Assembly: GCA_026002795.1 (NCBI GenBank)
Contig: BPGA01000001.1
Coordinates: 163,220 to 227,219 of the forward strand
Length of the DNA stretch: 64,000 nt
Direction: 5' to 3'
DNA from: Candidatus Pacearchaeota archaeon
GTDB taxonomy: Archaea; Nanobdellota; Nanobdellia; Pacearchaeales; GW2011-AR1
The notes beneath the pieces were generated by a model. The model made no database searches. It had not been told where the DNA came from and was given only the letters and a program-made list of their open reading frames with translations. Made by a program: the position numbers and the translations under genes. Shown one piece after another: positions 21,428 to 58,968 of this stretch (the first letter of the stretch is position 1; each line of letters starts with the position of its first letter).

Positions 21428-21439
21428 TTTTTATCTTTA

Positions 21440-21526
21440 TGGGCTTACTAGGAATCGAACCTAGATCTGCAGGTTTCTTCTAAAAATAACCGAAGCCTGC
21501 TGTTCTATCCATTGAACTATAAGCCC
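21440..21526 (-). tRNA. intron-containing tRNA, most likely tRNA-Arg (anticodon TCG) with ~15-nt intron 3' of position 37
   Basis: Reverse complement GGGCTTA-TA-GTTC-AATGGATA-GAAC-A-GCAGG-[CTTCGG+TTATTTTTAGAAGAA+A]-CCTGC-AGATC-CTAGG-TTCGATT-CCTAG-TAAGCCC; 22 nt between anticodon stem halves = 7-nt loop + 15-nt insert; intron GAAG pairs with anticodon-region CTTC. Confidence 0.65.
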
Positions 21527-21580
21527 AAAAATAATAAAATTGTTATATTTTTATATATTAATACTTTTTAAAAATATAAA

Positions 21581-29614: not shown

Positions 29615-30529
29615 TTAGTTTTTGACATAAGACCAAATAATCGGTAAAGCTATTGTAGCATCACAAATTACATCGACAAAATCTAAATCTTTTTTTGAGT
29701 TTGTTTTAAGCTTACCCCAAGAAATTCCTTCCTCTAAAGGAGCACCAGAACTTCCTCCAAATTCTTCTCTTTCTGTTGTTATTTGAACACCATAATCAGC
29801 TCCTCCAGAAAATTGTAGGGCTTGTTGAATGAAATTTTTAGGTGTTCCGCCTCCAATATAGATAACTGCTTTTTTATTTTTAGTCCACACAATATTTATA
29901 AAATCGCTAAGCTCATTAAAAAAATCTATATTTGTGTATTTAGAAGATTTAATTCTGCTCCATAACATTAATCCTAATCCGGAATCTAAAAGTGTTGGAC
30001 AAAAAATAGGCGTTTTTGTAGAGTAACATATTGAAAAAATACTATTTTGATTTTTTAGAATTTTTCCAATTAGCCAGTAAAATTCGATATTATTTTTAGA
30101 GTTTTTAAGAAAAGACCAGTTTTTTTCCAAAAATTTTTCTATTTTTTTGTAAACTAGGTTTTTCATAAAAACATTATAAATCCTATCATAACCTTTTTTT
30201 TGAAAGATAATATCGTTCCAAACATCACAATGATAATGGTTTTCTCCTAAAGCTTCGGCAAGATCATGGGTTAGGTTTGCTCCAGTAATAACAATTGCTT
30301 TTATTTTTTTTGTTTTAATCATGTCAATTATTATCTCTTTCATTCCAGCTGGAACCATTGCTCCGGCAATACCTAAGAAAATATCACATTTTTCCTCGTA
30401 AAAAATTTTTTTAAAAATTTCTGAAGCAAGACCAATTTTTCTAGCTCCAAAACCAGCATTTTTCATGTTTTTTACGAGTTTTTTAACTTTCATTTCTTTA
30501 GTTATTTTTATATGTCTAACTTTTTCCAT
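29615..30529 (-). CDS. dys: deoxyhypusine synthase
   Basis: DHS motifs GGGTPKNF and KAIVITGAN. Confidence 0.85.
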   Translation of the reverse strand: MEKVRHIKITKEMKVKKLVKNMKNAGFGARKIGLASEIFKKIFYEEKCDIFLGIAGAMVPAGMKEIIIDMIKTKKIKAIVITGANLTHDLAEALGENHYHCDVWNDIIFQKKGYDRIYNVFMKNLVYKKIEKFLEKNWSFLKNSKNNIEFYWLIGKILKNQNSIFSICYSTKTPIFCPTLLDSGLGLMLWSRIKSSKYTNIDFFNELSDFINIVWTKNKKAVIYIGGGTPKNFIQQALQFSGGADYGVQITTEREEFGGSSGAPLEEGISWGKLKTNSKKDLDFVDVICDATIALPIIWSYVKN

Positions 30530-39736: not shown

Positions 39737-40255
39737 ATGAAAAAAATAAATTTGTTTTTAGTCGGTCAGAAAATTTTTTCTAATTCAGAAGAGGCATTTT
39801 TATTAAATAAAAAAAGTTATTTTGGTGAAAATGTTGACGGCAAAATAGTTTATTCTTTATGTGAAGCTCTTTTTTTGATAGAAGAAAATAAAGCAACGGT
39901 TTTAAGCAAAAAAAAGAAACTAAGTTTTAATGATTTAATAAAAAAATTTGTTAGATATGATTCTAGATTAATGGTAAAATATGTAGTTTTTAAAGATCTA
40001 AGAAAAAAAGGTTATATAGTAAAAACAGCTTTAAAATACGGTGCTGATTTTAGGGTTTATGAAAAAGGGAAAAAACCTGGCAAAGAACATGCGAAGTGGA
40101 TTGTCTTTTGCGATAGTGAAAGTAAAAAAATAAATTGGGTTGATTTTTCTGCAAGAAACAGAATCGCAAACTCTGTAAAGAAAAAACTTTTAATAGCAAT
40201 AGTTGATGAAGAGGGTGATATAACTTATTATGAAGTTAGTTGGGTAAAACCTTAA
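39737..40255 (+). CDS. endA: tRNA-splicing endonuclease
   Basis: Catalytic C-terminal domain GADFRVYEKG ... HAKWIV (Tyr/His/Lys triad). Confidence 0.85.
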   Translation: MKKINLFLVGQKIFSNSEEAFLLNKKSYFGENVDGKIVYSLCEALFLIEENKATVLSKKKKLSFNDLIKKFVRYDSRLMVKYVVFKDLRKKGYIVKTALKYGADFRVYEKGKKPGKEHAKWIVFCDSESKKINWVDFSARNRIANSVKKKLLIAIVDEEGDITYYEVSWVKP

Positions 40256-44238: not shown

Positions 44239-44436
44239 AAATTAACCACTACACTAATATATTTAAATTCTTTGTATTCTTAAAGAAAATGTAATTAAAA
44301 TTTTAAGTATCTAATTTGAGTAATTTAGATATTTATCTATTAATTTATAGGTTAATTCATTTATTAGTTTATGTAAGAATTAATTTATTTATTAATAAAT
44401 AGATTTATAAATGAATAGATCTTAAAAATTTGGGGG

Positions 44437-44712
44437 TTGAAAAGAATGCATGATAAAATATCAGATTTAGTTCTAAAAACAATTCAAGAGTCAGATGAGC
44501 CTTTAGAAACAAAAGAAATTCAAGAAAAGATTATAACACAAATTAGAGGAGTTACACGAACAAAGATTTTTTATAGATTAAATTTATTGAGAGGAGAAGG
44601 ATTAATCAAAGGAAAATTTGTTGGGCCTGGAAAGGGTGTTTGGATTTGGTGGGCAGAAAACAATCTTCTAAAAAATGAACAAAAAAGAGGTGAAAATGAT
44701 AATTCAAGTTAA
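44437..44712 (+). CDS. small winged-helix DNA-binding protein (first gene of surface-protein operon); real start likely ATG at 44446
   Basis: WH-like ETKEIQEKIITQIRGVTRTKIFYRLNLLRGEGLIKGK; GGGGGT SD upstream; annotated start is TTG. Confidence 0.5.
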   Translation: MKRMHDKISDLVLKTIQESDEPLETKEIQEKIITQIRGVTRTKIFYRLNLLRGEGLIKGKFVGPGKGVWIWWAENNLLKNEQKRGENDNSS

Positions 44713-44932
44713 TGAAGTAAATAATTTAATAAAATTTGAAGAAGTTTTTACAAATTCAAAATTATTAAGAGGTATGATAAAATTAAGCTATATAATAAAT
44801 AAAAAAAGAAACTACTTTGTTTATACTTTTTTTGAGATTTGGAATCAAAAAACTCTTTTCAACCCGCATGGCTCTGATGTAAATTCAGAGCCATTATACC
44901 CATCAATAAAAAAAGAGGTGGAAAATGAATAG
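44675..44932 (+). CDS. hypothetical small protein
   Basis: 85-aa ORF overlapping both neighbours by a few codons (operon-like coupling); SD AGAGGTG upstream. Confidence 0.4.
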   Translation: MNKKEVKMIIQVNEVNNLIKFEEVFTNSKLLRGMIKLSYIINKKRNYFVYTFFEIWNQKTLFNPHGSDVNSEPLYPSIKKEVENE

Positions 44933-45527
44933 AAAAATTTTACTTTGGACATTTGCAATTTCAGGATTTACAGCTTTAGTTTATGAAATAGTCTGGAGTA
45001 GACAACTTCAGCTGATATTTGGCTCTACAGTTTATGCGGTTTCAACAATATTGACAACTTTCTTTGTTGGATTTTCTCTAGGCTCTTATCTATTCAGGAA
45101 TGTTGCAGATAATTCAAAAAATCCTGTAAAATTATTTGCATTAATTCAAATTGGAATTGGTTTATATGCTGTAATAATATTATGGCTTTTCAAGATTCTT
45201 CCGTCTTTTTATATTCATCTAACAAACATTCCAGGAATTCAGTTCATTCAATTTTTGTTGCTTTTTTTAATTATAATAACTCCAGCGACTTTATTTGGAG
45301 CTACGTGGCCAGTAATAAGCAAATCTTATATTGATTATGAAAAATTAGGAAAAGACACAGGAAGACTTTATGCATTCAATTCATTTGGCTCTTTCCTAGG
45401 GCCTCTAGCAGCAGGGTTTGTTTTAGTTCCTATTTTAGGGATAATAAAAACTTCTCTTTTAATGGCTTTAATTAATATAATAATCGGCACAATATTAATT
45501 TCAAGAGGTAAAAAAAATGAGAATTAA
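44925..45527 (+). CDS. polytopic membrane protein, paralog of the N-terminal TM module of the downstream spermidine-synthase-like protein
   Basis: TFAISGFTALVYEIVWSRQLQLIFGSTVYAVSTILTTFFVGFSLGSYLF parallels IAFVFSGAAALIYEITWIRPLQFVFGSTVYTISIIFAAFMGGLALGSLII of the next ORF; 6 TM. Confidence 0.65.
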   Translation: MNRKILLWTFAISGFTALVYEIVWSRQLQLIFGSTVYAVSTILTTFFVGFSLGSYLFRNVADNSKNPVKLFALIQIGIGLYAVIILWLFKILPSFYIHLTNIPGIQFIQFLLLFLIIITPATLFGATWPVISKSYIDYEKLGKDTGRLYAFNSFGSFLGPLAAGFVLVPILGIIKTSLLMALINIIIGTILISRGKKNEN

Positions 45528-47196
45528 TTTAAGAAGTTTACTAATAATAGCATTTGTGTTTTCAGGAGCAGCAGCTTTAATTTATGAGATAACATGGATT
45601 AGGCCATTGCAGTTCGTCTTTGGCTCAACTGTTTATACAATTTCTATTATATTTGCTGCATTTATGGGTGGCTTGGCTTTAGGATCTTTAATTATTTCAA
45701 AATACATTGATAAACTAAAAAACCTTCCAAAAACTTACGCATTATTTGAAATTGGAATAGGAATTTATGGTGTTTTGCTGTTAAGTATATTTAATCTGCT
45801 TCCTGGTATTTACAATTCATTATATTTCTTACATACAAACTTTTACTTATTTGAATTTGTACAATTCTTAATTGTCTTTTTGGTTTTATTGATTCCAACA
45901 ACTTTAATGGGTGCGACTTTTCCTGTTATTGCAAAATTCTATACAAAAGAAAAGATTGGAAAAGCCATTGGAGAAGTTTATTCTGCAAATAATGTTGGAG
46001 CAATAATAGGAAGTTTTGCTGCAGGATTTATTTTAATTCCTTTAATTGGAATAAAAGAAAGTATAATTTTTGCGGGCAGTATAAACATGTTAATTGGTTC
46101 AATAATAATTTTGAAATCAAAAAGTTTTGAGGAAAATAGAGATAAAATTTTCATAATAACATCAGTTTTATTGTTCCTTATTCTAGCTTATATTGGAAAT
46201 TACAGCATACAACAAATGCATTCTGGAGGATTTTATAGAACTTTAGAAATAGAAAAAGATCTTGGCCCTGTAATTTATTATAATGAAGGACTTTATGCAA
46301 CTGTAAGTGTAAGAGAACTTTTTGGAAAAGGAAAAGCATTATTTATCAATGGAAAAGGCCAGGGAAGTACTGGAATTTTTGATTTAAGAGTTAATTTTAT
46401 GCTTGCTTATTTACCAATATTATTAAAGCCGGATACTAAGGATGTATTAGTTATTGGTTTAGGAACTGGAACAACTTCTGGACAGCTTGCTCAAAGCGTT
46501 AATGTAAAAACTATTGAAATTGAATCAGCAGTTTTGGAAGGAAGTAAATATTTTTCAACTTTTAATTTAAATGTACTTGAAAATCCGAACCATACTTTAA
46601 TTATAGATGATGGAAGAAATTGGCTTTTGAAAAATGAAGAAAAATATGATGTAATAATTCCAGAACATAGTGATCCGTGGCAATCTTTTTCAACAGCATT
46701 ATTTTCAAAAGAGTTTTTGGAACTTGCCTCTGAAGATTTAGATGAAAATGGGTTGTATGTACAATGGGTTCCTATATATCAAATGTCTGTAAAAGATTTC
46801 AAAAATTTCTATAAAACATTTACTTCTGTATTTCCAAATGTTGTTGTATTTGCAAATATAAAACCAGATGAAGATACTCCTGTAAGATTTGAAACTTCTG
46901 AATTAATTTTTGTTGGTTCTAAAAATAAAATAAATATTAGTGAAGAATTAATTAATGAAAACTATAATAAATTACCGGAAATTTCCAAGCAACAGCTAAA
47001 TCTAATAAGATTATCTTCAGGTTCTGAAATTTATCATTTATTTGTTTTTAAAAGTGAACAAATGAAAGGCTATGCAGATGATGCAAAAATAATTACTGAT
47101 GATAATTTACTTTTGGAATTTTCAACAGCGAAACGAGTTTTAAATCAAGGTCCTAAGGAGGTGATAAATGATATTGAAAGGTTTGTTTCAGAATAA
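45517..47196 (+). CDS. membrane-embedded spermidine synthase-like (PABS/methyltransferase fold) fusion protein
   Basis: N-terminal ~7 TM module; C-terminal VLVIGLGTGTTSGQLAQ ... VKTIEIESAVLE ... LIIDDGRNWL resembles spermidine synthase AdoMet-fold. Confidence 0.7.
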   Translation: MRINLRSLLIIAFVFSGAAALIYEITWIRPLQFVFGSTVYTISIIFAAFMGGLALGSLIISKYIDKLKNLPKTYALFEIGIGIYGVLLLSIFNLLPGIYNSLYFLHTNFYLFEFVQFLIVFLVLLIPTTLMGATFPVIAKFYTKEKIGKAIGEVYSANNVGAIIGSFAAGFILIPLIGIKESIIFAGSINMLIGSIIILKSKSFEENRDKIFIITSVLLFLILAYIGNYSIQQMHSGGFYRTLEIEKDLGPVIYYNEGLYATVSVRELFGKGKALFINGKGQGSTGIFDLRVNFMLAYLPILLKPDTKDVLVIGLGTGTTSGQLAQSVNVKTIEIESAVLEGSKYFSTFNLNVLENPNHTLIIDDGRNWLLKNEEKYDVIIPEHSDPWQSFSTALFSKEFLELASEDLDENGLYVQWVPIYQMSVKDFKNFYKTFTSVFPNVVVFANIKPDEDTPVRFETSELIFVGSKNKINISEELINENYNKLPEISKQQLNLIRLSSGSEIYHLFVFKSEQMKGYADDAKIITDDNLLLEFSTAKRVLNQGPKEVINDIERFVSE

Positions 47197-50100
47197 AAAA
47201 GGTTTAATTCAAAAAAGTATGACTTTAATTTTCATAGCTTTTGCTTTATTTGCTTTAATATTTTTGGTATATAATTCAAAGTATGCTTCAGCTGCAAAAT
47301 CAGATCAATTCTTTATAGGCAATTTTACATGTGAAAGTTTTGAAGATGCTCTTTTATGGAGTGCTGTAGGACAAAAAAGTGCACCAACAAATAGTTATTT
47401 TGGATGGGTACCGGCAGTAGGATGTAATTCAAGCATTAATACAGTAGGTCCTAAAGCATGTGATATACATAAAATACAAAGTTTTGTAAGATATTCAAAT
47501 ATTGGAACAGCGAATAGTTTAACTACAGGACAAGTATATGCTCAAATCGCAAACACAACACAATCAAATGAAACAAACCCTTCATCAGCAAACTTTACTT
47601 TAGCAAGATATTTTGCAAGATTAAATGAAACGGTAGTTGCGGGAGATGTTTTAGGTCCAAGATATGAATGTGGAATTGCTTCAGACACTACTTCAATAAA
47701 TAGAACATGTCAAGTTAATGGAAGTGGATATGATAACAGCACTTTTAATTATTCTGTTCGTTTATTTGCAGATGGAGCTGCTAATGGAAAAACAAGAGCT
47801 TTAATTGATGTTTTCAATATAAAATACGACTGGTGTTGGACGCCAATAATTTATGATGCAGTTGTGACTCCTGACATTGCAGATAATGAAACAACTTTCA
47901 CATTTACCATTAATGTTACAAATCCTGGAGCAACAACAAATGTTTCTTTGTTTACAGCACCTCTAGGATCAAATGAGTGGGTACAGGAAGGGGCTACTCA
48001 AACTTGTATAGATTGTGCACAAAAAAAGCTGACATTTAATGTGAATTTTGGAAACCGTATTGGAAAAAGAATTTTTAAGTTTAATGCAACAGACGGCACT
48101 TACGGCACTGAAGCTGGAAATCCAGCACATTTAGGAACAGCAACAAACGAATGCCTTGACACAGATAATGATTGCCAGTTTGAAGTAACTCAAGCAGCGG
48201 CAGCACAGGGAACTCCAAATATCATAAATGAAACAGTAAATGGTGTTCAGTCAGGAGCTGTTGAAGGCTGGGGAACAAACTGGACTTTTTCTGTAAATGT
48301 AAGTAACCCTCCTGATGGAGCAGGAGATATTAATGTAACTCTTTTTGTTAATACTGGGTCTGGCTTTATACAAAAAGCATCTGCAAATTGTACAGCGCCT
48401 TGCTCCAGCTCAACAAAATTTACTTTCTTTGTGGATGATTTTCAATGTTCTGATATTTCTTCTGCTCAATACAGATTTACTGCAACCAATCTTAACGGAA
48501 CTACAACTGTAACCCACCCATTTACAATCGAAAGAGATGATGTAATTATTGAGCATATTCAAGGAAACAATAGCATTGCAAATAGAAGTGGAAACCAGAT
48601 AGATTTGCTTATTGTTAGGGTTTTTGACTCTGATAAAGCTCCTTCAGGAGCATATATTGGAAGTGGAACAAATGTTACTTTTAACGTAAAATTTGATGAT
48701 GTAAACTTTGATGCTGGAACAAACAGAACAACAAATTCATCTGGATATGCTAATTATTCTTTTGACCCAACATGTTCTCCAACAAAATACCAAGTAGGAA
48801 ACAGAGAATGGAAAGCTTCAACGTCAGGAGATTCATGTTATAAAGATGTAACCTCAAGTATTCTTAACTTATCAATTGCAGGAGATATTATTCTTACATT
48901 TAATGAACCTGATGGTTCAAGCAACTTTACTCAGGAAGATGAAATAACTTTCCTTGGAGCAACAACAGATGATTGCGGAGATGCTTTAGTTACAACAGTA
49001 AAGTATTATGCAAACTCTTCTGAAGATAGCTTTGCATGTACTTCAACAACACAAATAGGTGCAAATGCATTCCAGTGTGTTTATACAACTTCTCTTTCAG
49101 ACACAAGAGGTTATTATAATACAACAATGCTAGCAAATAGAACTCTACATTATGATAATCAAACAAGTAATGTTGGAAATCCTGGATTATTCTATTTATT
49201 CCCTAGAAAAAAGCTTACAAATCCAACTGCAAATCCAACTGCAGAAGGTTGGGGTAAACCAAACTGGAATTTCTCTGTTTTAGCAAGTTCTGGTGATATT
49301 GACAATGTTCTTCAGGTTAACTTATTTATGGCACAATCAGTAAACCCAACAACACAATGTACTTCACCTACATGTCAGAATCAAACACCAATAATTTGTG
49401 ATGCTGTTGCTGGTTGTAGTAATCAGCTTGTAACTTATTATAGAAACTTTACAGCATCTGATCAAGGAACATGGTTCTTCCAATTTAAGTTTAATGATAC
49501 TGAACTAACTTCAACATCAGGAACTGAGTTTTCAGTTGTTGTTGAAAAAGATGATACAAATATAAGCTATGGTGGTCAGGGAAATGCAACAACTGTAATT
49601 AAAGATACACAACCACAGAATCTTTCAGTTCGTGTTTTTGATTTAGATAAAAACAGCTATAATGTAACATTGCCAAGCGCAAATGTAACATTTAAGCTTC
49701 TTGATCCTGGTTATGCTGGTGGTGAAAAAATTATTGGATATGCTCTTACAAATGAAACAGGCCATGCAACATTCTTGTTTAATGTTACAGAGTGTAATTT
49801 CCAGCAAGGAACTCAGAAATGGATTGGTGAAATTCTTTCAACAGAGCCAAATTACAAACCAAGTAAGTCAGAGAACTTTACAATAACAATAAATCTTCCT
49901 GGATGTGAAGCAACTGTTTCAGTTGAAAATGTTATAACACCTACTGAAACATTCCAAAACATTAACTTCACAATAAATTCAACAATTGCTGCATTTATAT
50001 CAACTGCAAATGATGTTAATGTTACATTAAATGTTCCTTCTGGATGGATTGTAGGACCAAGTGCAACACAAAGCCTTGGAAGTGTTGTACCAGGAACTCC

Positions 50101-53100
50101 AAAAACAGTTTCATGGACAGTTAATGCAACAAGTTATGGAAGGTTTAATGTCTCTGTATTTGCAAACTCAAGTGATGCTGGAAATGACACCCTTGACTCT
50201 TCAAACTTCCAGGTTTATAAGGAAGAGCTAAAAGGAACAGCATTAAGCCCAACACTGCCTTCTATTGTTCAAGCTGGAGGAAATATTACAGCATCATGGC
50301 AGTGTAGTGTTGGAGATTATAGAGTTGCAACACTAAACATAAATGCAAATACAAGTTCAAGTCCAACAACAATAAGGGTTTTGACTTATAATGGAACAGA
50401 TTTTGTAGATGTTCTTCACTCTAAGTCTGTTGACACAAATAACACAATTAAAACAATAAAAGTTCCTCTTTTAAGCAAGCAAATTGATAGCAATGAGACA
50501 GGATTCTGTAATGTAAAAATATTTAATCTAGGAAGCAACAGTATAAATATAACAGACATTTCATTGGAAGCTTATTACAATGAAACTGTTTCTGTAAGAG
50601 ATGTCCAAGCAAGTGTTAATGGTGTAAACACAACTGGAATTGAAAGTTCTGAAACATTGTTTAATGTTTCTGCAATTCTTGCTAACTCAATAAATCAGAG
50701 CTTCTTGGCTAATGTAACTCTTAACATAACAAACTCTTCAGGAGTTGTTTTCACATCAACAAACAATAACATTAATATTCCAGCATTAGGAAGCATACAA
50801 ACAAACTTCATTAACATTAACACTTCAAACTGGAGTGTTGGAAATTATAGTATTGAAGTTTATGCAGTTGGAAACTTCACAAAAGCTAATAACAAAACAG
50901 AAATTCTAATCTTTAACAATGTTGAGATTTATGCAGATAGTACAAAATACATATGCAACAGTACAACTGAAACATTTAATGTAACAATATTCCATCCTTT
51001 CACAGATACAATACAATACAACATTTCCTTAGAAATGCCTTCTGGTTGGTCTTATTCAGGAGCACAAACTGTAAACATTTCAACAATTGGAAATCATTCA
51101 TTCATATTTAACATAACATCAAGCAATGCTGCTGCTGAAAATGCAACAATAAACGCAACAATAAACTACAGCTATCCTGGAATTAATAAGCTGAAAAAAA
51201 CAAGCTTTAATATCGAGGAAGGTAACAATATACCAATACTAGAAATAATAAGAGAGAGTCCGAGAGTTGTGTCAAGTAATACAGAGTTTGTTTCAAGATT
51301 AATTGTCTACAATAAAGGATGTGCTTTAGCAAATTCAATTAGTTTAACAGAAAAGGTTTCTTCTGGTTGGACAGCTTATACTCCTTCCATTGATGGAGTT
51401 TTGGGTGGAATTGCTGACATTCCTAAAGGAGAAATAAGATATACTGAAAATGACTTAGGAACAATTAGAGCAAAAGAGTACAAAGTTTTGTCTTACTTCA
51501 TATTTTCTCCATCAGGGCTTAATGAAATCGGAAAATTAAGATATAATCTAACATGGGGCTCAAGAAATAATTATGAGCCTACAGAATTCACAATAAATAC
51601 TTCAAAATACACTAAAGAATCTCATCTTTCCTATAATATAAGAGCAGTAGGAAGCTTTAAAGATAGGTCTGCAGAAAAAGATGAAAATCAACTTTATGAA
51701 TTTAATGTGACGAATATTGGTGATTTCAACATTACAAATGCAACTTGGAATGTTAGCTTAAGCATTCCTAATGAATGTTCTCCTTCAAACTATACAGGTA
51801 TTTTCAACTCCACGACAAGAAAAATAACATGGCCTCTTGGAACACTAAATGTTTCTAATACAAAGAGTTTCTTCCTTAATTTGAATTGTACTGTTGAAAA
51901 TAGATTTGTTTTAGTTGCCGAAGGTACTAATGACACAAGAACACAAACAAGCTTTAGCAATAACACTGGAATTGGTTGTAGTTTCAGTTCTGGAAATGAG
52001 TGCTCTTCAGTTTCAAGCTTTACATTTAGTAAGCCAAGCAATGCAAGATATGAAAAACTTTCTAGTGTGAATGCAACAATATTCTACAACTTTACAGACT
52101 TTAAGATGACAGTTGGTGAAGGAGCAATAAACTTTAGTGATGATTTCAATAAGTTTAGAATTTTATGGCAGAACTATTCTATAACAACTCCTGATGGAAC
52201 TTCTGGAACAGTTGTTGCTAACTATACTCTTGATTCTAGTGAACAAGATTCTTTTGTAAACTCAGCAAGAAATATTGGTGTAAGAGCTTATGTTGATGCA
52301 ACTTCTTCTGCAAAGGGAAATGTAACATTACAAAAAATTGATTACACCTGGGATCACGGAAAGCTTTTCAATGAGAGTCAGAATTTGTTTATAGATATTC
52401 ATCCTTTCATATTTGATCTGCCAACGCCTGTGTTACAAACACCTTTAAACAATTCTCTTCAAGCAGCTGTACCTGTTGGTTTATCATGGGAAGCTATAAG
52501 CGCGCCACAAGGAATAAATATAACTTATTATGTATTTGGTGATAGCACAAATGCTTCTACATTACTTGATGTAATAACAGAAAACCTTTATTTATGGCGT
52601 GATTTAGGAGCAACACAAGGAACATTTTATTGGAAAGTTATTGCAAGTGATGGAACACAAAATAAAAGCTCTGAGATAAGACAGTTTACTCTTGATTTAT
52701 GTCAGCCAAACACTAATTTCGCTTTTGCTTTAAATTATCCAATGAGTTATAATCTAACAACAGATACAATTACTGTTTGGGGTAGTAATGGCACTGGATT
52801 TACTGCAATGGGTAACAATGAAAGTAATCCTATAACTTTCAAGAACATATTTGAATTTGGACAGGCAGTAAGAGGTGTTTGTGCTGTTACTAATCCTTCT
52901 TCTGGATCATATGTTATTTTAAGTAGATTAGAATTAGGCAATGTAACAGATCCGTTAAATACGACTTTTGTAAAAACAACTGGAGAGTCATTAAGCTTTA
53001 ATAAGCAACTTCAATTAAACTTCAATGCCACCCTCATTTCTGGTCAGTTAACACAAGGGGGCTCTCCATTTGGAGGATCAACTCTTTCATTTTCTGGCTT

Positions 53101-56100
53101 AGATGCTGTTAATCAAGAAGAAGGAGAGTTTTACTTAAAACCAGGATCTAAGTTAAGATTATATGATACAGGTGTTTTACATACAATAACAGCAAATAAT
53201 TCAAATCCATTTAGGCTTTATTGGAATGGTGATGTAATTGCAAAAGCAAGCACTTTACAAAACTGGTACACTATAAGATTCTTAGGATCAAACAACACAA
53301 TAGACAACTTAATTTTAACAAATATGGGAGAAGGATTCTTCCCAGCAGCGACGCAGATAGGTGTTTTAACAAATATAAGACCAAGTGGAATTCAAAAAGG
53401 TGGGTTAATGCTTGAAGGTAATGCAAATTCTACAATAACTAGCTTAGAAGTTCAGGAAGCTACAAATGATATACTTGTTCAAAATTATACAGGTACAACA
53501 AACTTAATTAATGCAAATTTGAATTTCAGTAATATAAACTGGACAACAGGTACATTCTCTGGAAAAATTAACAGAAAATACGATTATGAGCCAACAGTAA
53601 CAGATAGTGCTGGAATACCTATTTCAAATACAAGTATGGTTTTATTAGATACTAGAGGAGAAATTATATTTGACTTGTTTACAGATTCTTTAGGAAAAAT
53701 ACCAAAGCAAACAATAACAAGAGCTATTTATGATTATAACTTTAAGACAGGAGATGATAGAGGTCCACATACTCTAAAAATAAAGAAATACGGAAAAACT
53801 TTCCAGTCTTTAGCAAAGCAATTCTCTGCAGCAACAATTGAAACATTACAGTTAACAAATAATCCATTCATAAATAGAACAGAGGCTCAGGCAAAAAATC
53901 AAACAGGAATAAAATTCAATCCTCCAATAAGAGTACCATATGGAGCTGAAATATATCAAAACTTTAATACAACAGGAAAACTTAATAACTCTCCTATAAC
54001 ACAATCAGAATTCTTTGCAGTATTTGGATTTGATGGTGTTAATGAAAATAGAAAACTTACTCTTGTTACAGGTAGTCCTAGTGCAAATGGAGAGTTTAGT
54101 GTAAATTATGCAACAGGAGAATTAATTTTCTTCAATGATCAAACCGGCCACAATGTAACTCCTGTTTATAGTTATGGAGGAAATATTACAATTTCTACAG
54201 GAACTGCTTCACAAAATTGTATTAGCATGAGCAATCTTTATGATTACATGCAAGCAAACCTTTCAGATGTTATTACAACAGTTGATGGAATTACATATAC
54301 AATGTTTGTAAACCTTATAATAGGAAATAACACTGTGGGAGGGTGTATTGTTGATCCTAAGGCATCTATAGTGTTTGAAGATGGCTATACTTACAGCTTT
54401 AGTCCTATAGGTGGTTATATTGATTTAGCAGGAATAACTGCAGGAGGCGGAACTTCGGGAAGTGGAATTAATCCATTAAGTATAGTAGATTCTGTTGGTT
54501 CACAGTATAATCCTGGAGATGTAGTTGATGTATTTTCAACAACTTACGAATCCTCAACAGGAAATTTAATTGATGCAACTGTAAATGTAACAATATTTTA
54601 TCCAAATAATAGTATTTTAGTAAGTGGTATATCAAATAAAATATCTACTGGATTTTATAAGTTTAATACAACTCTTCCAGATAATTCTCCTTTAGGAACT
54701 TATGGAATTTTAATAAGAGCTAATGACTCTTCTGGTAATGTTGTTAATGATGTTCTTTCATTTAAAGTTGAACAAAAACAAATTTCTTCTGGATTTGCTC
54801 TTAATATGTTTAACACAATAGGAAGTACTTATGGTTTTGGTGATGTAGTAAAGTTATTCACGACAACAGTAAATTCTTCTGGCAACCTAGTAAACTCAAC
54901 AGTTAATGTTGCTGTATTCTATCCTAACAATACTTTGTTAAATTCTGGGCAGTCTTCTTTAGTCTCTACAGGAAGATTTGAATACAGCTTTATTGCTCCA
55001 ACAGTTGAAGGAACTTATAGAATAAATGTAGATGCAAATTATTCTGGAAACGAAGCGCACGATACAGAATCATTTATAATTTCAGCTACAAGTTCTGGCG
55101 GTAGTGTATCAACTCCTCAGATTTATGTAGAGGCACCTTCTGTAGTGAATGTTAATACGAACTTTAGTATAGTCTCTCTTATAAACAGTGAAAGTGGAAT
55201 TCCTGTAAATTGTGATTCTGGAGCAAATTTGACAATAAAAGATAGCTTAAATGGTGTTAATGTTTTAAATGAAACCCCAATGACAAACTTTGCTCTTGGT
55301 CTTTACAATTACACCTATTTAGCATCAACACCTTCAAGTTATTTAGCAATAGTTGATTGTATAATCTCGAATGTAGAGTATAAAGGAATAAAAGCATTTT
55401 CGACACAAGGAGTTCCTCTTCCAAAAAAAGCTGTTGTTGAAATGTCTGATTTTGATGAGGTTTTAGCTGGAAAGAATTTCAGAGCAAAAATCTGGATATT
55501 TGATCAAAATGGAGTTCCTATAAATGCAGATTCTACACCAACAATAACTCTTTATGATCCTCTAAGAAATATTATTGTTCAGAATGTATCTATGACACAA
55601 ATAAGTACTGGAATTTATGAGTACAACTTTACAACTTCTTCTGGTCTAACTGGTGGAGTATGGGAAGCTATTGCAAATGTTGTTGTTAATGGTATAAACT
55701 ATCAACCTTCTGACTTTTGGGAATTAGAATCAAGTCCAGCTCAAGTTAAGATTAATAGTATTGTAGATAATACAATACCCACAATAACAGCAGATGTAAC
55801 AATAACAAATGAGGGTTCTGGAGCTCAAGAGTATCAGTATGAGTATTGTATAGTTTCTGAACAAACTAATCAGTGTGGTGGAGATGATGATATTGATTAC
55901 GCGTCTGGAGCAAAACTATTAAATCCAGGAGAAAGTTTCAATACTTTGTTAACTTTAGACGGTGTAACCTCTCCTGGAGATTATTATTTCAAAATTGTTG
56001 TTTATTTTGGAACAGAAAAAAGTGGGGCTTCTCAATTATTTACAGCTGTAGAAGAAGGCGCACCAACACCAGCACCTGCACCTAGCGCTCCTTCTGGAGG

Positions 56101-56764
56101 TGGTGGGGGAGCTGCTCCAATAACACCTCCTGAAATTGTGAAAGAAGAGAAACCAACGGGTAAATTGTACTTATTTAATTTAAATATAGATATAATAAGT
56201 TTAAGGGCTTTAACATTGCTCCAAAACTCTATTGAAACTAATAAAGAGTTTTTAACATCAAAACAAATATTTATAGACTTTTCATCGCTAAACCCAACAA
56301 GAGATGAACTTATTCTAGAGACCAAAACAAACATAACTGACTTTTCATCAATTAAAGGAGAAAAAGACGTTGTGTTAGAACACTCTATAGAAGATCCAAA
56401 TGGAAAAGTTTATGTATCTAGCTTTGAAACAAGAAAAATAAACAATTCAGAGATAGTAATAAAGGAAATTAAAATTCCTGCAAGATTGTTGAGTGTTGGC
56501 AATTATCTTGTTGTTGCTAAGTTAACATACAATAATGAAACCTTTATTGGTAGAGATGTATTTGCTATTGTAAGCAAAGAACCAGAAGCAAAAATTGAGA
56601 GTATAAGCATATGGATTTTAATTATTGTTTTAATTTTATCGATAATATTAGTTATTACAATAATAAGATTGATTATTAAAAAACAAGCATATAAAAGAAA
56701 AATTGAACAGAGATTGCAGGAAAAAGAAAGTTTAAAAAAAGTAGAAAGGTATATTAAAGAATAA
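47168..56764 (+). CDS. giant (3198 aa) cell-surface protein: N-terminal signal anchor, sequon-rich Ig-like/CARDB-like repeat modules, Pro/Ala/Gly linker, C-terminal TM anchor with coiled cytoplasmic tail
   Basis: Single uninterrupted ORF; N-term LIFIAFALFALIFLVY; very many N-x-S/T sequons; recurring EGWG(T/K)NW(T/N)FSV and VNVT(I/V)FYPNN modules; PTPAPAPSAPSGGGGGAAP then IWILIIVLILSIILVITIIRLII. Confidence 0.85.
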   Translation: MILKGLFQNKKGLIQKSMTLIFIAFALFALIFLVYNSKYASAAKSDQFFIGNFTCESFEDALLWSAVGQKSAPTNSYFGWVPAVGCNSSINTVGPKACDIHKIQSFVRYSNIGTANSLTTGQVYAQIANTTQSNETNPSSANFTLARYFARLNETVVAGDVLGPRYECGIASDTTSINRTCQVNGSGYDNSTFNYSVRLFADGAANGKTRALIDVFNIKYDWCWTPIIYDAVVTPDIADNETTFTFTINVTNPGATTNVSLFTAPLGSNEWVQEGATQTCIDCAQKKLTFNVNFGNRIGKRIFKFNATDGTYGTEAGNPAHLGTATNECLDTDNDCQFEVTQAAAAQGTPNIINETVNGVQSGAVEGWGTNWTFSVNVSNPPDGAGDINVTLFVNTGSGFIQKASANCTAPCSSSTKFTFFVDDFQCSDISSAQYRFTATNLNGTTTVTHPFTIERDDVIIEHIQGNNSIANRSGNQIDLLIVRVFDSDKAPSGAYIGSGTNVTFNVKFDDVNFDAGTNRTTNSSGYANYSFDPTCSPTKYQVGNREWKASTSGDSCYKDVTSSILNLSIAGDIILTFNEPDGSSNFTQEDEITFLGATTDDCGDALVTTVKYYANSSEDSFACTSTTQIGANAFQCVYTTSLSDTRGYYNTTMLANRTLHYDNQTSNVGNPGLFYLFPRKKLTNPTANPTAEGWGKPNWNFSVLASSGDIDNVLQVNLFMAQSVNPTTQCTSPTCQNQTPIICDAVAGCSNQLVTYYRNFTASDQGTWFFQFKFNDTELTSTSGTEFSVVVEKDDTNISYGGQGNATTVIKDTQPQNLSVRVFDLDKNSYNVTLPSANVTFKLLDPGYAGGEKIIGYALTNETGHATFLFNVTECNFQQGTQKWIGEILSTEPNYKPSKSENFTITINLPGCEATVSVENVITPTETFQNINFTINSTIAAFISTANDVNVTLNVPSGWIVGPSATQSLGSVVPGTPKTVSWTVNATSYGRFNVSVFANSSDAGNDTLDSSNFQVYKEELKGTALSPTLPSIVQAGGNITASWQCSVGDYRVATLNINANTSSSPTTIRVLTYNGTDFVDVLHSKSVDTNNTIKTIKVPLLSKQIDSNETGFCNVKIFNLGSNSINITDISLEAYYNETVSVRDVQASVNGVNTTGIESSETLFNVSAILANSINQSFLANVTLNITNSSGVVFTSTNNNINIPALGSIQTNFININTSNWSVGNYSIEVYAVGNFTKANNKTEILIFNNVEIYADSTKYICNSTTETFNVTIFHPFTDTIQYNISLEMPSGWSYSGAQTVNISTIGNHSFIFNITSSNAAAENATINATINYSYPGINKLKKTSFNIEEGNNIPILEIIRESPRVVSSNTEFVSRLIVYNKGCALANSISLTEKVSSGWTAYTPSIDGVLGGIADIPKGEIRYTENDLGTIRAKEYKVLSYFIFSPSGLNEIGKLRYNLTWGSRNNYEPTEFTINTSKYTKESHLSYNIRAVGSFKDRSAEKDENQLYEFNVTNIGDFNITNATWNVSLSIPNECSPSNYTGIFNSTTRKITWPLGTLNVSNTKSFFLNLNCTVENRFVLVAEGTNDTRTQTSFSNNTGIGCSFSSGNECSSVSSFTFSKPSNARYEKLSSVNATIFYNFTDFKMTVGEGAINFSDDFNKFRILWQNYSITTPDGTSGTVVANYTLDSSEQDSFVNSARNIGVRAYVDATSSAKGNVTLQKIDYTWDHGKLFNESQNLFIDIHPFIFDLPTPVLQTPLNNSLQAAVPVGLSWEAISAPQGINITYYVFGDSTNASTLLDVITENLYLWRDLGATQGTFYWKVIASDGTQNKSSEIRQFTLDLCQPNTNFAFALNYPMSYNLTTDTITVWGSNGTGFTAMGNNESNPITFKNIFEFGQAVRGVCAVTNPSSGSYVILSRLELGNVTDPLNTTFVKTTGESLSFNKQLQLNFNATLISGQLTQGGSPFGGSTLSFSGLDAVNQEEGEFYLKPGSKLRLYDTGVLHTITANNSNPFRLYWNGDVIAKASTLQNWYTIRFLGSNNTIDNLILTNMGEGFFPAATQIGVLTNIRPSGIQKGGLMLEGNANSTITSLEVQEATNDILVQNYTGTTNLINANLNFSNINWTTGTFSGKINRKYDYEPTVTDSAGIPISNTSMVLLDTRGEIIFDLFTDSLGKIPKQTITRAIYDYNFKTGDDRGPHTLKIKKYGKTFQSLAKQFSAATIETLQLTNNPFINRTEAQAKNQTGIKFNPPIRVPYGAEIYQNFNTTGKLNNSPITQSEFFAVFGFDGVNENRKLTLVTGSPSANGEFSVNYATGELIFFNDQTGHNVTPVYSYGGNITISTGTASQNCISMSNLYDYMQANLSDVITTVDGITYTMFVNLIIGNNTVGGCIVDPKASIVFEDGYTYSFSPIGGYIDLAGITAGGGTSGSGINPLSIVDSVGSQYNPGDVVDVFSTTYESSTGNLIDATVNVTIFYPNNSILVSGISNKISTGFYKFNTTLPDNSPLGTYGILIRANDSSGNVVNDVLSFKVEQKQISSGFALNMFNTIGSTYGFGDVVKLFTTTVNSSGNLVNSTVNVAVFYPNNTLLNSGQSSLVSTGRFEYSFIAPTVEGTYRINVDANYSGNEAHDTESFIISATSSGGSVSTPQIYVEAPSVVNVNTNFSIVSLINSESGIPVNCDSGANLTIKDSLNGVNVLNETPMTNFALGLYNYTYLASTPSSYLAIVDCIISNVEYKGIKAFSTQGVPLPKKAVVEMSDFDEVLAGKNFRAKIWIFDQNGVPINADSTPTITLYDPLRNIIVQNVSMTQISTGIYEYNFTTSSGLTGGVWEAIANVVVNGINYQPSDFWELESSPAQVKINSIVDNTIPTITADVTITNEGSGAQEYQYEYCIVSEQTNQCGGDDDIDYASGAKLLNPGESFNTLLTLDGVTSPGDYYFKIVVYFGTEKSGASQLFTAVEEGAPTPAPAPSAPSGGGGGAAPITPPEIVKEEKPTGKLYLFNLNIDIISLRALTLLQNSIETNKEFLTSKQIFIDFSSLNPTRDELILETKTNITDFSSIKGEKDVVLEHSIEDPNGKVYVSSFETRKINNSEIVIKEIKIPARLLSVGNYLVVAKLTYNNETFIGRDVFAIVSKEPEAKIESISIWILIIVLILSIILVITIIRLIIKKQAYKRKIEQRLQEKESLKKVERYIKE

Positions 56765-56788
56765 AAAATAAAAATTTATATTTAAAGT

Positions 56789-57241
56789 TTGTTATTATTT
56801 AAAATGGTGCTTGACTCTTACACTACATCAATTATAATAAATCTTTTTTCGTTGTTTTTTTGTCTAGTTGCAATTTTTTTATTATTTGAAATAAAAAAAA
56901 GGGTTGTTGGTGATTTTGCAAGAGGGTTTACTTTCTTAATTTTTTCAATTATAATTGTTTTTATTTTTATTTTGTTTTCTCTAATAAATAAGACAAAACA
57001 AACAGAATTAAACTTATTAAATGATTTTTTATTTTTTATTTTTACTTTTTTTGTTTCTATGTTTACTATAAGTATGTATAATGTTTTGGGAAGAATAATA
57101 AAAGAAAGAAAAAAGATCCGTGAATTTGATAAAAAAGAAAAAGTTAGTAAGAAAAAAAATAAATTAGTGGAGTCTAGAAAGCCAAAGATAAGTTTAATTG
57201 GTGGTGAGGAGTATATAGACCTAACAAATATTAAAGAATAA
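56789..57241 (+). CDS. small membrane protein with basic C-terminal tail, hypothetical (last gene of operon)
   Basis: 3 TM helices then KERKKIREFDKKEKVSKKKNK. Confidence 0.45.
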   Translation: MLLFKMVLDSYTTSIIINLFSLFFCLVAIFLLFEIKKRVVGDFARGFTFLIFSIIIVFIFILFSLINKTKQTELNLLNDFLFFIFTFFVSMFTISMYNVLGRIIKERKKIREFDKKEKVSKKKNKLVESRKPKISLIGGEEYIDLTNIKE

Positions 57242-57249
57242 ATTTAGTT

Positions 57250-58968
57250 TTATTGGTTTTTTTTCAAATTTCTTATGCGTCTTACAATAAGCAAAACAAC
57301 AATAAGCACAGAAACAACTCCTAAAAGAAGGACAAATCCTCCTGTACCGAAACCTTCAAAAATTGCAAAACCTGTTGGTGCTCCGAGTGTAATTGGCTCT
57401 TGAACAAATACCGAATAAATTTGTGAGTTCAATGAGGCTTGTAAAGTTAAGTTTCCTTCAATTGTTTCGTTAATTTGCATATTTGTCCTAAATTCTTTTT
57501 CAGAATTTGCATCTATTGTTTTGTTTTCTGTAATGTTTGAAACCTGCTGGTTATTTTGGTCTAATATTAAGAATTTTATTTCTACATTTTGATCTTGACC
57601 AGCGAGTTCTTTTAAAGAGTACAAAACCCTAATCCTATCACTTCTTGTTCTTTGAACATCTATTATATCAATGTCAAGTTTTTTGTTTACAACATTTACT
57701 GTTAACTCTTTAGTTGAAGAAGTTTCGCCACAATTTACATTTATTGAAATTTTTCTTTCACCATCTGTCAAATTTTGTGGTAAAGAAAGAACTAGTGTTA
57801 AACTAGAAGATTCTCCTGGATTTAGGTTTTTTTCTTCTGGTGAAATGTTAAACCATGAAGAAAATTCTTCTTGAATAGAAAGTTTACAAGAACTTAATGC
57901 AACATTGCCTGTATTTTGTATGTTTAAAGCTAAATTTTGGCTTGATCCTGGGTTTAAAGTTAAAGTAGGTAAATCAGCAACAGAAAGCTGAATTATTGTT
58001 GGTTGTTCTTGCACTTGTTGTTGTTCTGTTGTTTGTTGTTGAATTTCGTTTGTGATTTCATTTGGTGTCTGTGTTGTCTCGTTTGTTGTCTCATTTATTG
58101 TTTCTGTCGTTTCGTTTGTTGTTTGTTGGCTTTCTGAAGTTTGGTTTGTTGTTTGTTGTTGTGTTTGCACACTAAAAGATGAGCTTGTATAATTAAAACC
58201 AGAGGTTCCGTTTGCATAAAGATTAATAATGTAACTCCCATCTGAAGAAAGGTCAAATGTTGAGTTTGCGCAGTTAGAAAGTGTTGTGTTTTGTATCACA
58301 AAATTGTTTGAAGAATCAATAACATTGTACCAGCAGGTTAAATTCACTCCTTGAACATTGTAAGTTATAGGAATTCCTGTAGTTGTTGTTTTTTCTCCTT
58401 TTGGTTCAATTATTGTCAGTAAAGTCTGGCTTTGTTGTTGCTGTTGCTGAATTGCTTTGTAGTTTATTGAAACACTTGAAACAAATGGTGTTAATATTTG
58501 AGATGTGTTTGTTTCGTTTGAGGTTAGGTTGTAACCAGAAAAAGAGATTTTATATTGGAAGTACCTAGAATTTAAATTTAAAGGAGAAAGATTTATTGTT
58601 TTGTTATTTCCTACATCTTGAAAGGAAACGTCTGAGCAATTTTGTAAGGAACATGCTTTAACACTAAAAACTAAAGAAGTATTTTCAGGAATTTCTCCTT
58701 GCCAGCTTAAATTTAACCAAGAAGAGTTTTCGCCAGCATCGAAAATTCTTGAGATATAAATTCCATTTAAACTTCCTGAAGAAGAATTTAAAACTAAAGC
58801 GCTTCCATTGTAAAAAGTATTAGAGTAATTTCCTTGATCAAAATCAGCTTGGCTTGATTCTTGAAAAATTGCAAATCCTGTAAATTGTAAATTAAAAAAA
58901 TAAAGAATAGCTAAAGCTAAAAAAACTAAAGCAAAGACAGAAATATAAATTTTAACCTCTTTTCTCAT
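57250..58968 (-). CDS. anchored cell-surface protein with Gln/Thr/Asn-rich linker and PGF-CTERM-like C-terminus
   Basis: N-terminal signal anchor; QQTTNQTSESQQTTNETTETINETTNETTQTPNE linker; C-terminal PTGFAIFEGFGTGGFVLLLGVVSVLIVVLLIVRRIRNLKKNQ; N-terminus also has FTGFAIFQE. Confidence 0.7.
   Translation of the reverse strand: MRKEVKIYISVFALVFLALAILYFFNLQFTGFAIFQESSQADFDQGNYSNTFYNGSALVLNSSSGSLNGIYISRIFDAGENSSWLNLSWQGEIPENTSLVFSVKACSLQNCSDVSFQDVGNNKTINLSPLNLNSRYFQYKISFSGYNLTSNETNTSQILTPFVSSVSINYKAIQQQQQQSQTLLTIIEPKGEKTTTTGIPITYNVQGVNLTCWYNVIDSSNNFVIQNTTLSNCANSTFDLSSDGSYIINLYANGTSGFNYTSSSFSVQTQQQTTNQTSESQQTTNETTETINETTNETTQTPNEITNEIQQQTTEQQQVQEQPTIIQLSVADLPTLTLNPGSSQNLALNIQNTGNVALSSCKLSIQEEFSSWFNISPEEKNLNPGESSSLTLVLSLPQNLTDGERKISINVNCGETSSTKELTVNVVNKKLDIDIIDVQRTRSDRIRVLYSLKELAGQDQNVEIKFLILDQNNQQVSNITENKTIDANSEKEFRTNMQINETIEGNLTLQASLNSQIYSVFVQEPITLGAPTGFAIFEGFGTGGFVLLLGVVSVLIVVLLIVRRIRNLKKNQ

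Follow-up and report, generated by a model that had tools for sequence, protein, structure and literature searches.

A split transporter-like/spermidine-synthase-fold unit encoded beside giant surface proteins of DPANN archaea

The DNA considered here, hereafter the window, is a stretch of 64,000 nucleotides from a Candidatus Pacearchaeota archaeon (assembly GCA_026002795.1, contig BPGA01000001.1, positions 163,220 to 227,219 of the forward strand), in which six open reading frames (ORFs) at 44437-57241 include two adjoining membrane-protein genes, ORF3 and ORF4, and the gene of a giant surface protein, ORF5. ORF4 ends in a PABS domain, the fold of spermidine synthases, and our main finding is that the clade of PABS proteins to which it belongs is a conserved partner of very large surface proteins in DPANN archaea, a conclusion that comparison of gene neighbourhoods strongly supports. 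On the sequence evidence we further regard ORF3 and ORF4 as two parts of a single enzyme that belongs, in split form, to the uncharacterised "fused MFS/spermidine synthase" family (MFS, major facilitator superfamily). The features on which the argument turns, as predicted from the sequence, are the following.

44925-45527, + strand: ORF3, 200 residues, a six-helix MFS-type half ("TM-A"), assigned by its NF037959 match and by AlphaFold and Foldseek
45517-46116, + strand: ORF4 residues 1-200, a second six-helix MFS-type half ("TM-B"), 44% identical to ORF3
46147-46203, + strand: ORF4 residues 211-229, a seventh transmembrane helix (hydropathy 2.17 over 19 residues)
46219-46866, + strand: PABS domain, ORF4 residues ~235-450 (Pfam PF01564), with GLGTGTT, E334, D365 and E383..D386-P-W
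46867-47196, + strand: C-terminal extension, ORF4 residues 451-559 plus the stop codon, with an invariant TDDxxxLEFS (T527-S536)
47168-56764, + strand: ORF5, 3198 residues, a giant C-terminally anchored surface glycoprotein, with a 29-nt overlap between its start and the end of ORF4
47288-47893, + strand: Cys-rich X domain, ORF5 residues 41-242 (profile of alignment A4, E 8.8e-69)

The first-pass annotation of this DNA had described six co-directional ORFs with overlapping ends, all of which lie exactly where it placed them, and had proposed that the PABS protein is dedicated to the giant one. Gene neighbourhoods bear this proposal out. A scan with one genome per species gave 79 loci, and nine further contexts obtained by exact look-up brought the set to 88 related loci (those labelled L003 and L008 are one and the same contig). 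Downstream DNA is available for 18 DPANN-type loci, and in every one of them the PABS gene is followed, on its own strand, by the gene of a large surface protein; at 13 of the 15 junctions measured the two genes abut or overlap, with -23 to +3 nt between the PABS stop and the start of the large gene. The PABS proteins of these loci are 42-74% identical to ORF4, and their genomes are labelled Pacearchaeota, Woesearchaeota, Nanoarchaeota or Aenigmatarchaeota, with a few bins labelled otherwise: L010, L011 and L015 carry the archaeal cluster (56-58% identity to ORF4) and are filed under Saccharibacteria or Methanosarcinales public bins, probably as a result of mis-binning. The large gene runs past the contig end in most DPANN-type loci; the called sizes of its products include 1,294 residues, 7,586 residues (L086, 3195-13050) and 15,982 residues (L087, 4844-14806). 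The PABS gene and the giant gene are probably translationally coupled. Since none of the ~65 bacterial loci of the same family has a giant neighbour, the link is specific to the DPANN clade. What surrounds the bacterial genes varies; recurrent neighbours are NHL propellers (15 loci), response-regulator GGDEF proteins (13 loci), TPR proteins, GT2 glycosyltransferases, multihaem cytochromes and ResB; as a clue to function these neighbourhoods were discarded, since they hold no polyamine genes and no consistent partner.

We then consider how ORF3 and ORF4 relate to each other. ORF3 and the N-terminal membrane module of ORF4 (559 residues in total) align over all 200 residues of ORF3 (BLASTP, 44% identity, E 7e-52), in agreement with the paralogy that the first-pass annotation had noticed. 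Its title had gone further and spoken of two paralogous fusion proteins, which does not hold, as the PABS domain is present in ORF4 only and ORF3 consists of the membrane part alone. Both proteins match NCBIfam NF037959, "fused MFS/spermidine synthase", above its cut-off of 40 bits (ORF4 82.3, ORF3 64.5), with the ORF3 match limited to profile positions 4-183. Members of that family carry all modules on one polypeptide, whereas here module A is encoded by ORF3 and module B plus the PABS domain by ORF4. Single-chain proteins that combine module A, module B and PABS include P0091 (752 residues), P0116, P0117 and more than 100 bacterial homologues; ORF3 best matches their module A and ORF4 their module B plus PABS, so that the order of the modules equals the order of the genes. 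Among DPANN-type loci, a membrane-only paralogue is present in all 18; in L086 it is fused to its neighbour, and ORF3 finds its best match in the first module of the resulting three-module protein, while in L005, from a close Pacearchaeota relative, the unit is spread over three genes of 210, 214 and 356 residues. It is because of this pattern of fusion and fission across relatives that we take the two pieces to work together.

The fold of the membrane part can be approached through ORF3, whose AlphaFold model is confident (predicted local distance difference test, pLDDT, 93.3; predicted template-modelling score, pTM, 0.88) and contains six helices; hydropathy gives ORF4 seven, and both numbers agree with the first-pass description of a 6-helix protein and a 7-helix PABS fusion. 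All of the top 50 Foldseek matches of ORF3 in the PDB are MFS transporters, aligned over ~200 columns at a query-normalised TM-score of up to 0.72, and in each of them the whole query falls on one half of the target. Pfam returns no match for ORF3. As both halves lie on one polypeptide in the single-chain relatives, and as the P0091 model forms one confident body (pLDDT 92, pTM 0.92), we infer that ORF3 and ORF4 pair to give a 12-helix MFS-like body, to which a thirteenth helix and the PABS domain are added. This additional helix, the seventh of ORF4, is preceded by KSKSFEENRDK; its equivalents are the sole transmembrane segment of the stand-alone 356-residue PABS proteins and the helix at 397-416 in the P0091 model. 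Both halves also carry a Y-E-x-x-W-x-R signature at what is predicted to be the outer end of helix 1 (ORF4 residues 23-29, ORF3 residues 20-26), of which Y, W and R are invariant in 26 modules. Single protein searches return ~1,500 matches bearing the family name. A search of the literature for a characterised "fused MFS/spermidine synthase" member turned up two papers on context and none on such a protein, and the name is, to our knowledge, an annotation only.

Residues 295-445 of ORF4 match Pfam PF01564 (Spermine_synth) with E 9e-18 and 64.9 bits against a threshold of 22.9, and phmmer aligns the protein with 22 solved spermidine/thermospermine synthase chains (best 1INL, E 4e-13), some of them from residue ~250 onwards. 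Both the N-terminal beta-hairpin domain and the Rossmann domain of the PABS fold are present, and the P0091 model superimposes on SpeE structures with target-normalised TM-scores of 0.63-0.73. With canonical SpeE (T. maritima 1INL/1JQ3, human 2O06, M. truncatula 6BQ2) ORF4 thus shares the fold, and it also shares the ribose-binding Glu (E334), the adenine-binding Asp (D365) and acidic residues at both catalytic Asp positions. It differs in being membrane-integral and predicted to face outwards, in a C-terminal extension of 110 residues, and at two positions of the active site. The first of these lies in the glycine-rich loop, which is retained as a GxGxG (GLGTG) and in which T317 aligns with the Asp of the T. 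maritima GGGDG motif. In spermidine synthases this Asp makes contact with the amine of the aminopropyl group and leaves no room for the carboxylate of S-adenosylmethionine (AdoMet). The second is the catalytic segment, where P-E-H-S-D-P of ORF4 falls opposite D-S-T-D-P in the 1INL alignment, with E383 in place of the first Asp and the second kept as D386.

A motif census of 89 family members extends these observations. E334 and D365 are conserved in every member, whereas the position of the GGGDG Asp is occupied by T, S, A, C, G or I and by Asp in none. Most members have E or D at the first catalytic position, whereas the second varies; the E..DPW motif is specific to the DPANN clade. The TDDxxxLEFS columns of the C-terminal extension are invariant or nearly so (alignment A1) and return as NTDDxPxLEFS in the consensus of archaeal and bacterial members (A3); the extension lies outside the part that aligns to solved SpeE chains, and the motif is absent from canonical SpeE. 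The first-pass annotation had asked whether the Asp/Glu residues that bind decarboxylated AdoMet are present, and the answer is divided: the cofactor-binding Glu and Asp are universal, but the Asp that specifies the decarboxylated form is a Thr here. Its speculation about aminopropyl or polyamine transfer is, owing to this missing residue, not favoured over other alkyl transfers. The equivalog scores of ORF4 point the same way, being far under their cut-offs for PRK03612 (129 against 472), PRK00811 (80.5 against 260) and TIGR00417 (78.7 against 249.55). Given a cofactor site that is kept, a GGGDG Asp that is absent and scores so far below the cut-offs, the PABS domain looks like a working AdoMet-type transferase, for which methyl, aminopropyl or aminocarboxypropyl transfer are all possible. 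Since the residue that specifies decarboxylated AdoMet is missing throughout, the "fused MFS/spermidine synthase" family is probably mislabelled as a polyamine synthase.

On which side of the membrane the PABS domain lies is suggested by three observations taken together. The number of hydrophobic helices is odd, seven in ORF4, with a modal count of seven in its homologues and 13 in single-chain forms. The N-terminal tail and the 2-3, 4-5 and 6-7 loops of ORF4 hold 14 Lys and Arg residues against three on the opposite side, and the means over 53 seven-helix homologues are 9.5 and 4.3, respectively. Finally, MFS proteins have both termini in the cytoplasm. From helix count, charge bias and fold combined, the PABS domain is predicted to lie outside the cell, where the giant glycoprotein is located too. 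In most bacterial single-chain members the PABS domain is followed by TPR repeats, which bind proteins, and such a tail fits a protein substrate or partner.

The giant protein itself has a hydrophobic segment near each end (residues 17-35 and 3148-3166, the latter followed by a charged tail), immunoglobulin-like domains (two MG2, and NPCBM_assoc) and 139 N-x-S/T sequons where its composition predicts 63. It is net acidic, with 8.9% Asp plus Glu and 6.3% Lys plus Arg. Its gene is also higher in G+C (0.33-0.35) than the flanks (0.26-0.29), which could reflect amino acid composition (20% Ser plus Thr, 10% Asn) or a different origin. The X domain follows directly on the N-terminal hydrophobic segment and is present in 14 of the 18 large proteins encoded after the PABS gene. 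Small membrane-tethered proteins also end in this domain, and their genes lie between the membrane genes or just upstream of them (L001, L003/L008, L004, L005, L006, L007, L009, L010, L011 and L015); in the window this small gene is missing and ORF2 takes its slot. No Pfam model covers ORF5 residues 41-242, and outside these clusters the domain is very rare, with only 47 carriers among 1.84 billion cluster representatives searched exhaustively. We regard the X domain as the best candidate for a recognition target of the PABS complex. Two surface-related observations may be added: in L001, a T2SSE ATPase and two T2SSF platform proteins of a type IV pilus/archaellum-like system (1-2911) lie a few genes upstream on the same strand, and in the window a convergent ORF at 57250-58968 (- strand, 572 residues), with 27 sequons where 12.7 are expected and a weak immunoglobulin-like match, is probably another surface glycoprotein.

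How might these parts act together? The explanation we favour, if tentatively and at somewhat less than an even chance, is that ORF3 and ORF4 form an outward-facing AdoMet-type alkyltransferase that receives its donor through the MFS module and is dedicated to modifying the giant protein. The two six-helix halves would pair in the membrane into the MFS-like body, and the extra helix would place the PABS domain on the outer membrane face beside the giant glycoprotein, where it would bind an AdoMet-type cofactor handed over from the cytoplasm by the MFS-like body. After export, the giant protein would then receive an alkyl group (methyl, aminopropyl or aminocarboxypropyl), either on the polypeptide, at its X domain for instance, or on its glycans. 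The idea that the MFS-like module carries the donor is one that we infer by analogy. AT3 membrane domains work with extracytoplasmic SGNH domains. They are proposed to transfer acyl groups across the membrane onto carbohydrates (PMC9833829), and MFS-type Golgi AdoMet transporters of plants are reported to feed luminal polysaccharide methyltransferases (bioRxiv 10.1101/2021.07.06.451061). In both systems a membrane module is believed to bring a cytoplasmic donor to the non-cytoplasmic side for the decoration of surface polymers, as proposed here; AT3/SGNH proteins have no sequence relationship to ORF3 or ORF4, however, and the Golgi system consists of separate proteins and serves a closed compartment. 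In its most specific form the proposal would make the complex the first prokaryotic AdoMet-dependent transferase to act outside the cell, supplied by its own transporter and alkylating tips or glycans of giant proteins recognised through the X domain; we consider this version doubtful.

Several points weigh against an outward-facing transferase acting on the giant protein. The outward orientation is a prediction, and the sequon ratio of the PABS domains (0.41, against ~0.63 in cytoplasmic controls) shows no enrichment and so supports exposure neither way; 89% of PABS homologues are free of Cys, and we judged Cys and sequon content not decisive for topology. The kinship with MFS transporters has its own weak spots: the structural E-values of ORF3 against them are only 0.03-0.3, Pfam MFS_1 matches ORF4 (E 2.1e-7) with 30.6 bits, below its gathering score of 33.4, and a sequence profile of the membrane module finds nothing among solved structures at E <= 1. 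AdoMet is not available outside the cell, and we know of no extracytoplasmic AdoMet-dependent enzyme in prokaryotes. Lastly, adjacency implies a functional association and not that the giant protein is the substrate, and the X domain went undetected in four of the 18 downstream proteins.

An alternative that keeps the family name at face value is a coupled polyamine synthase and exporter, in which the PABS domain makes a spermidine-like polyamine that the MFS-like body exports (or the domain acts at the membrane face), and the polycation coats or cross-links the acidic giant protein non-covalently. The fold and most active-site positions are indeed those of an aminopropyltransferase, the MFS includes polyamine and amine carriers (the structure search with ORF3 returned VMAT and OCT, among others), the excess of acidic residues in ORF5 would suit a polycation, and an arginine decarboxylase, a source of agmatine, is encoded in the window. 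Surface-localised spermidine has a precedent in Pseudomonas aeruginosa, where it is made by a PmrAB-regulated SpeE homologue. The absence of the GGGDG Asp for use of decarboxylated AdoMet from all 89 members argues against such an activity, as do scores below all aminopropyltransferase equivalog cut-offs, and no AdoMet decarboxylase was found, either in the window or among the neighbours of the bacterial genes that were examined. Moreover, the odd helix count sets the PABS domain away from cytoplasmic substrates, and a diffusible product leaves the start-overlapping adjacency to X-domain proteins unexplained. Overall, we consider a synthase/exporter unlikely.

Alternatively, the outward PABS-like domain may have lost catalysis and serve as a dock or assembly factor that holds or assembles the X domains of the giant and small proteins. 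Such a role would account for why PABS proteins of this clade occur together with the giants and with the rare X domain, would need no cofactor supply outside the cell, for which none is known, and would agree both with the TPR protein-binding repeats of bacterial relatives and with a rigid, confidently modelled architecture (pTM 0.92) suited to a scaffold. It is at odds with the cofactor site: the ribose Glu and the adenine Asp are universal, GxGxG is kept and the acid at the catalytic position usually so, which is the pattern expected from purifying selection on a working site. A simple anchor would also have no need of a conserved 12-helix transporter-like body, and we hold a non-catalytic role to be quite unlikely.

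A third possibility shifts the substrate from protein to lipid. The MFS-like body would flip a lipid or lipid-linked oligosaccharide, as LtaA, Spns2 and MFSD2A do, and the PABS-like domain would modify its head group, thereby altering either the envelope that anchors the giant protein or a glycan that the protein receives later. The structure search with ORF3 returned the lipid flippases LtaA and SPNS2, among others, the heavily sequon-enriched giant would depend on lipid-linked glycans, GT2 glycosyltransferases are sometimes found in bacterial neighbourhoods, and the wide occurrence of the family without giant neighbours fits a more general envelope substrate. Yet the cluster contains no gene for glycan or lipid synthesis, the DPANN-specific E..DPW, like the strict adjacency to X-domain proteins, speaks for a protein as the partner, and the problem of cofactor supply is the same as for the favoured alkyltransferase; this makes a lipid or glycan modifier very unlikely in our judgement. 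The remaining alternative, a housekeeping membrane spermidine synthase (for instance for hypusination of aIF5A) whose position by the giant gene is meaningless, is highly improbable: a deoxyhypusine synthase and an arginine decarboxylase are encoded in the window, no other SpeE homologue was found in its 64 kb (12% of the genome) and relatives are annotated as "spermidine synthase" in the sources, but adjacency holds at 18 of 18 loci over 42-74% identity, mostly with overlapping stop and start, so that the expectation of an adjacency limited to close relatives is already contradicted, the Asp specifying decarboxylated AdoMet is missing, scores are far under the equivalog thresholds, and spermidine may not be required for hypusination, since haloarchaea appear to hypusinate although their main polyamines are agmatine and cadaverine rather than spermidine (PMC5178350). 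A reading as a defence system was also rejected, as PADLOC gave only a generic methyltransferase-fold match (mad2, E 2e-9) besides a weak match to the Csa3 winged helix-turn-helix region.

Comparison with described systems helps to delimit what is specific to this cluster. The bacterial members of NF037959 have identical content and order, MFS-like modules followed by a PABS-fold domain, and have in common with ORF4 a GxGxG without Asp and a C-terminal TDD..LEF. They differ in being single chains, mostly with a TPR tail and without a giant neighbour, whereas the unit described here is split into two genes (three in L005), has no TPR tail, carries the clade-specific E..DPW and adjoins a giant gene. 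Fusions of a 7TM-transporter-like with a spermine/spermidine-synthase-like domain have been reported from bacterial PspA/CesT operons by Ravi et al. 2024 (PMC11237479), who raise "aminopropylation of other substrates" as a possible role. Likened to ORF4 by description only, they share the general architecture; their partners are PspA, CesT/Tir, DUF350 and a lipoprotein, in contrast to the giant and X-domain proteins found here, and a second MFS half is not described. Haloferax volcanii has two integral-membrane SpeE homologues, HVO_0255 and HVO_B0357, of which HVO_0255 combines a GG(GA)G(F/Y) motif without Asp with a long C-terminal extension (PMC6267482); again compared by description, these are known only through a transposon hit for hypochlorite tolerance, and a linkage to giant proteins is unreported there.

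For the giant protein, the closest parallel is with the "SPEARE" proteins of nanohaloarchaea, giant membrane-anchored surface proteins with a presumed role in host contact (PMC10266531). By description, ORF5 resembles them in its very large size, N-terminal export signal, immunoglobulin-like repeat domains and membrane anchor, and the 7,586-residue neighbour in L086 does so in its match to DUF87, a VirB4/HerA-type ATPase family. Unlike SPEARE proteins, which have a VirB4/TraG-like ATPase, ORF5 matches no ATPase family, and the word spermidine has 0 occurrences in the SPEARE description of PMC10266531. A full-text search, which does not cover all journals, returned no paper that links a giant surface protein, DPANN archaea and a spermidine synthase. 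The proteins are thus of known but uncharacterised kinds; what appears to be new is their conserved pairing, together with the division of the enzyme into halves, the X domain and the orientation predicted for the PABS domain, towards the outside.

The remaining features of the cluster are its upstream region and three small genes.

44395-44417, + strand: conserved upstream element ATAAATAGATTTATAAATGAATA, 23 nt identical in the relative L003
44446-44712, + strand: ORF1, 88 residues, candidate small winged-helix DNA-binding protein (orthologues; sub-threshold winged helix-turn-helix matches)
44675-44932, + strand: ORF2, 85 residues (78 from ATG 44696), soluble and lineage-specific, with GAGGTGA 3 nt before ATG 44696
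56804-57241, + strand: ORF6, 145 residues, three transmembrane segments, with a TATA-like box and no Shine-Dalgarno (SD) motif

ORF1 most likely starts at ATG 44446 rather than at the listed TTG 44437, because four orthologues begin there. These orthologues (82-83 residues, 59-65% identity) head the cluster in L003/L008, L004, L005 and L007, and three of the four give sub-threshold matches to Pfam HTH_12 (best E 5.6e-5); further sub-threshold matches are to FUR, TBPIP and the Csa3 winged helix-turn-helix region (E 0.007; PADLOC), all of them winged-helix families. A profile of ORF1 has no significant match among solved PDB structures. A winged-helix protein is therefore plausible by these similarities, and ORF1 is probably a local regulator of that type acting at or beside the conserved TATA-like element. 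The latter contains a palindrome, ATTTATAAAT (44403-44412), which also occurs upstream in L005, and the distance from the 23-nt block to the ORF1 ATG is similar in the window and in L003 (51 vs 54 nt). We consider the element the probable TATA-box promoter region of the cluster, and a binding site for ORF1 could lie within it. A perfect 12-bp palindrome, TTTATTAATAAA, at 44388-44399 overlaps its 5' edge; the first-pass suggestion that such an AT-rich palindrome is the operator of ORF1 was rejected, since perfect 12-mers of this kind number 42 in the window and ~40 in shuffled sequence.

ORF2 matches nothing in Pfam, NCBIfam or PADLOC and has no homologue among the 88 related loci. Its slot is occupied in relatives by secreted X-domain or NPCBM_assoc proteins; that it is a decayed gene of this kind was considered and dismissed, the best of eight such proteins reaching E 0.13 in tblastn against 44600-44999. 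SD motifs, which the first-pass annotation had assigned to the ORFs in general, are strong before the internal ATG 44696 of ORF2 (GAGGTGA), ORF3 (GAGGTGG), ORF4 (AGAGGT) and ORF5 (GGAGGTGAT) and missing from ORF6. The latter, with three hydrophobic segments, had been counted as the last gene of the operon, and this could not be sustained: besides lacking an SD motif it has a TATA-like element of its own, TTTATATTT at 56775-56783, centred 25 nt upstream of its ATG 56804, and no homologue in any related locus, including L088 and L010, both of which reach beyond the large gene. As the 25-nt spacing fits archaeal promoter geometry, ORF6 is probably a separate leaderless gene outside the conserved unit.

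The window as a whole (G+C 25-35%) has an archaeal gene content, with a tRNA-splicing endonuclease, TBP, TFB, MCM and archaeal-type aminoacyl-tRNA synthetases. A pyruvoyl-dependent arginine decarboxylase (16144-16710, - strand) and a deoxyhypusine synthase (29615-30529, - strand) are encoded, and neither an AdoMet decarboxylase nor a soluble SpeE was found anywhere in the 64 kb; by analogy with the haloarchaeal proposal, the organism may hypusinate aIF5A without classical spermidine synthesis. A DisA-type diadenylate cyclase (27398-28447, - strand) next to a DHH/DHHA1 phosphoesterase (28475-29575, - strand) looks like a make-and-break pair for cyclic di-AMP in a DPANN genome. The tRNA-Arg(TCG) at 21439-21527 (- strand) is, at 89 nt, long for a tRNA-Arg; it probably contains an intron, in keeping with the presence of a splicing endonuclease gene (39737-40255). 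Two adjoining paralogues of class II Asp/Asn/Lys-type tRNA synthetases (13520-14818 and 14823-16109, both - strand) lie near genes for GatE- and GatD-type amidotransferase subunits (17266-18711 and 20135-21427), and an AbiEii-type nucleotidyltransferase toxin homologue is found at 18758-19564 (- strand; E 2.4e-6).

DPANN archaea depend on contact with host cells, which is thought to be mediated by giant surface proteins, and a conserved enzyme-like partner encoded directly upstream of the giant genes offers a testable handle on how these proteins mature. If the proposed outward-facing alkyltransferase is correct, it would represent a new class of surface-protein maturation enzyme and would suggest a role for thousands of unstudied bacterial "fused MFS/spermidine synthase" proteins. 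For this large family, known by its annotation name, the association with giant surface proteins provides a first contextual clue.

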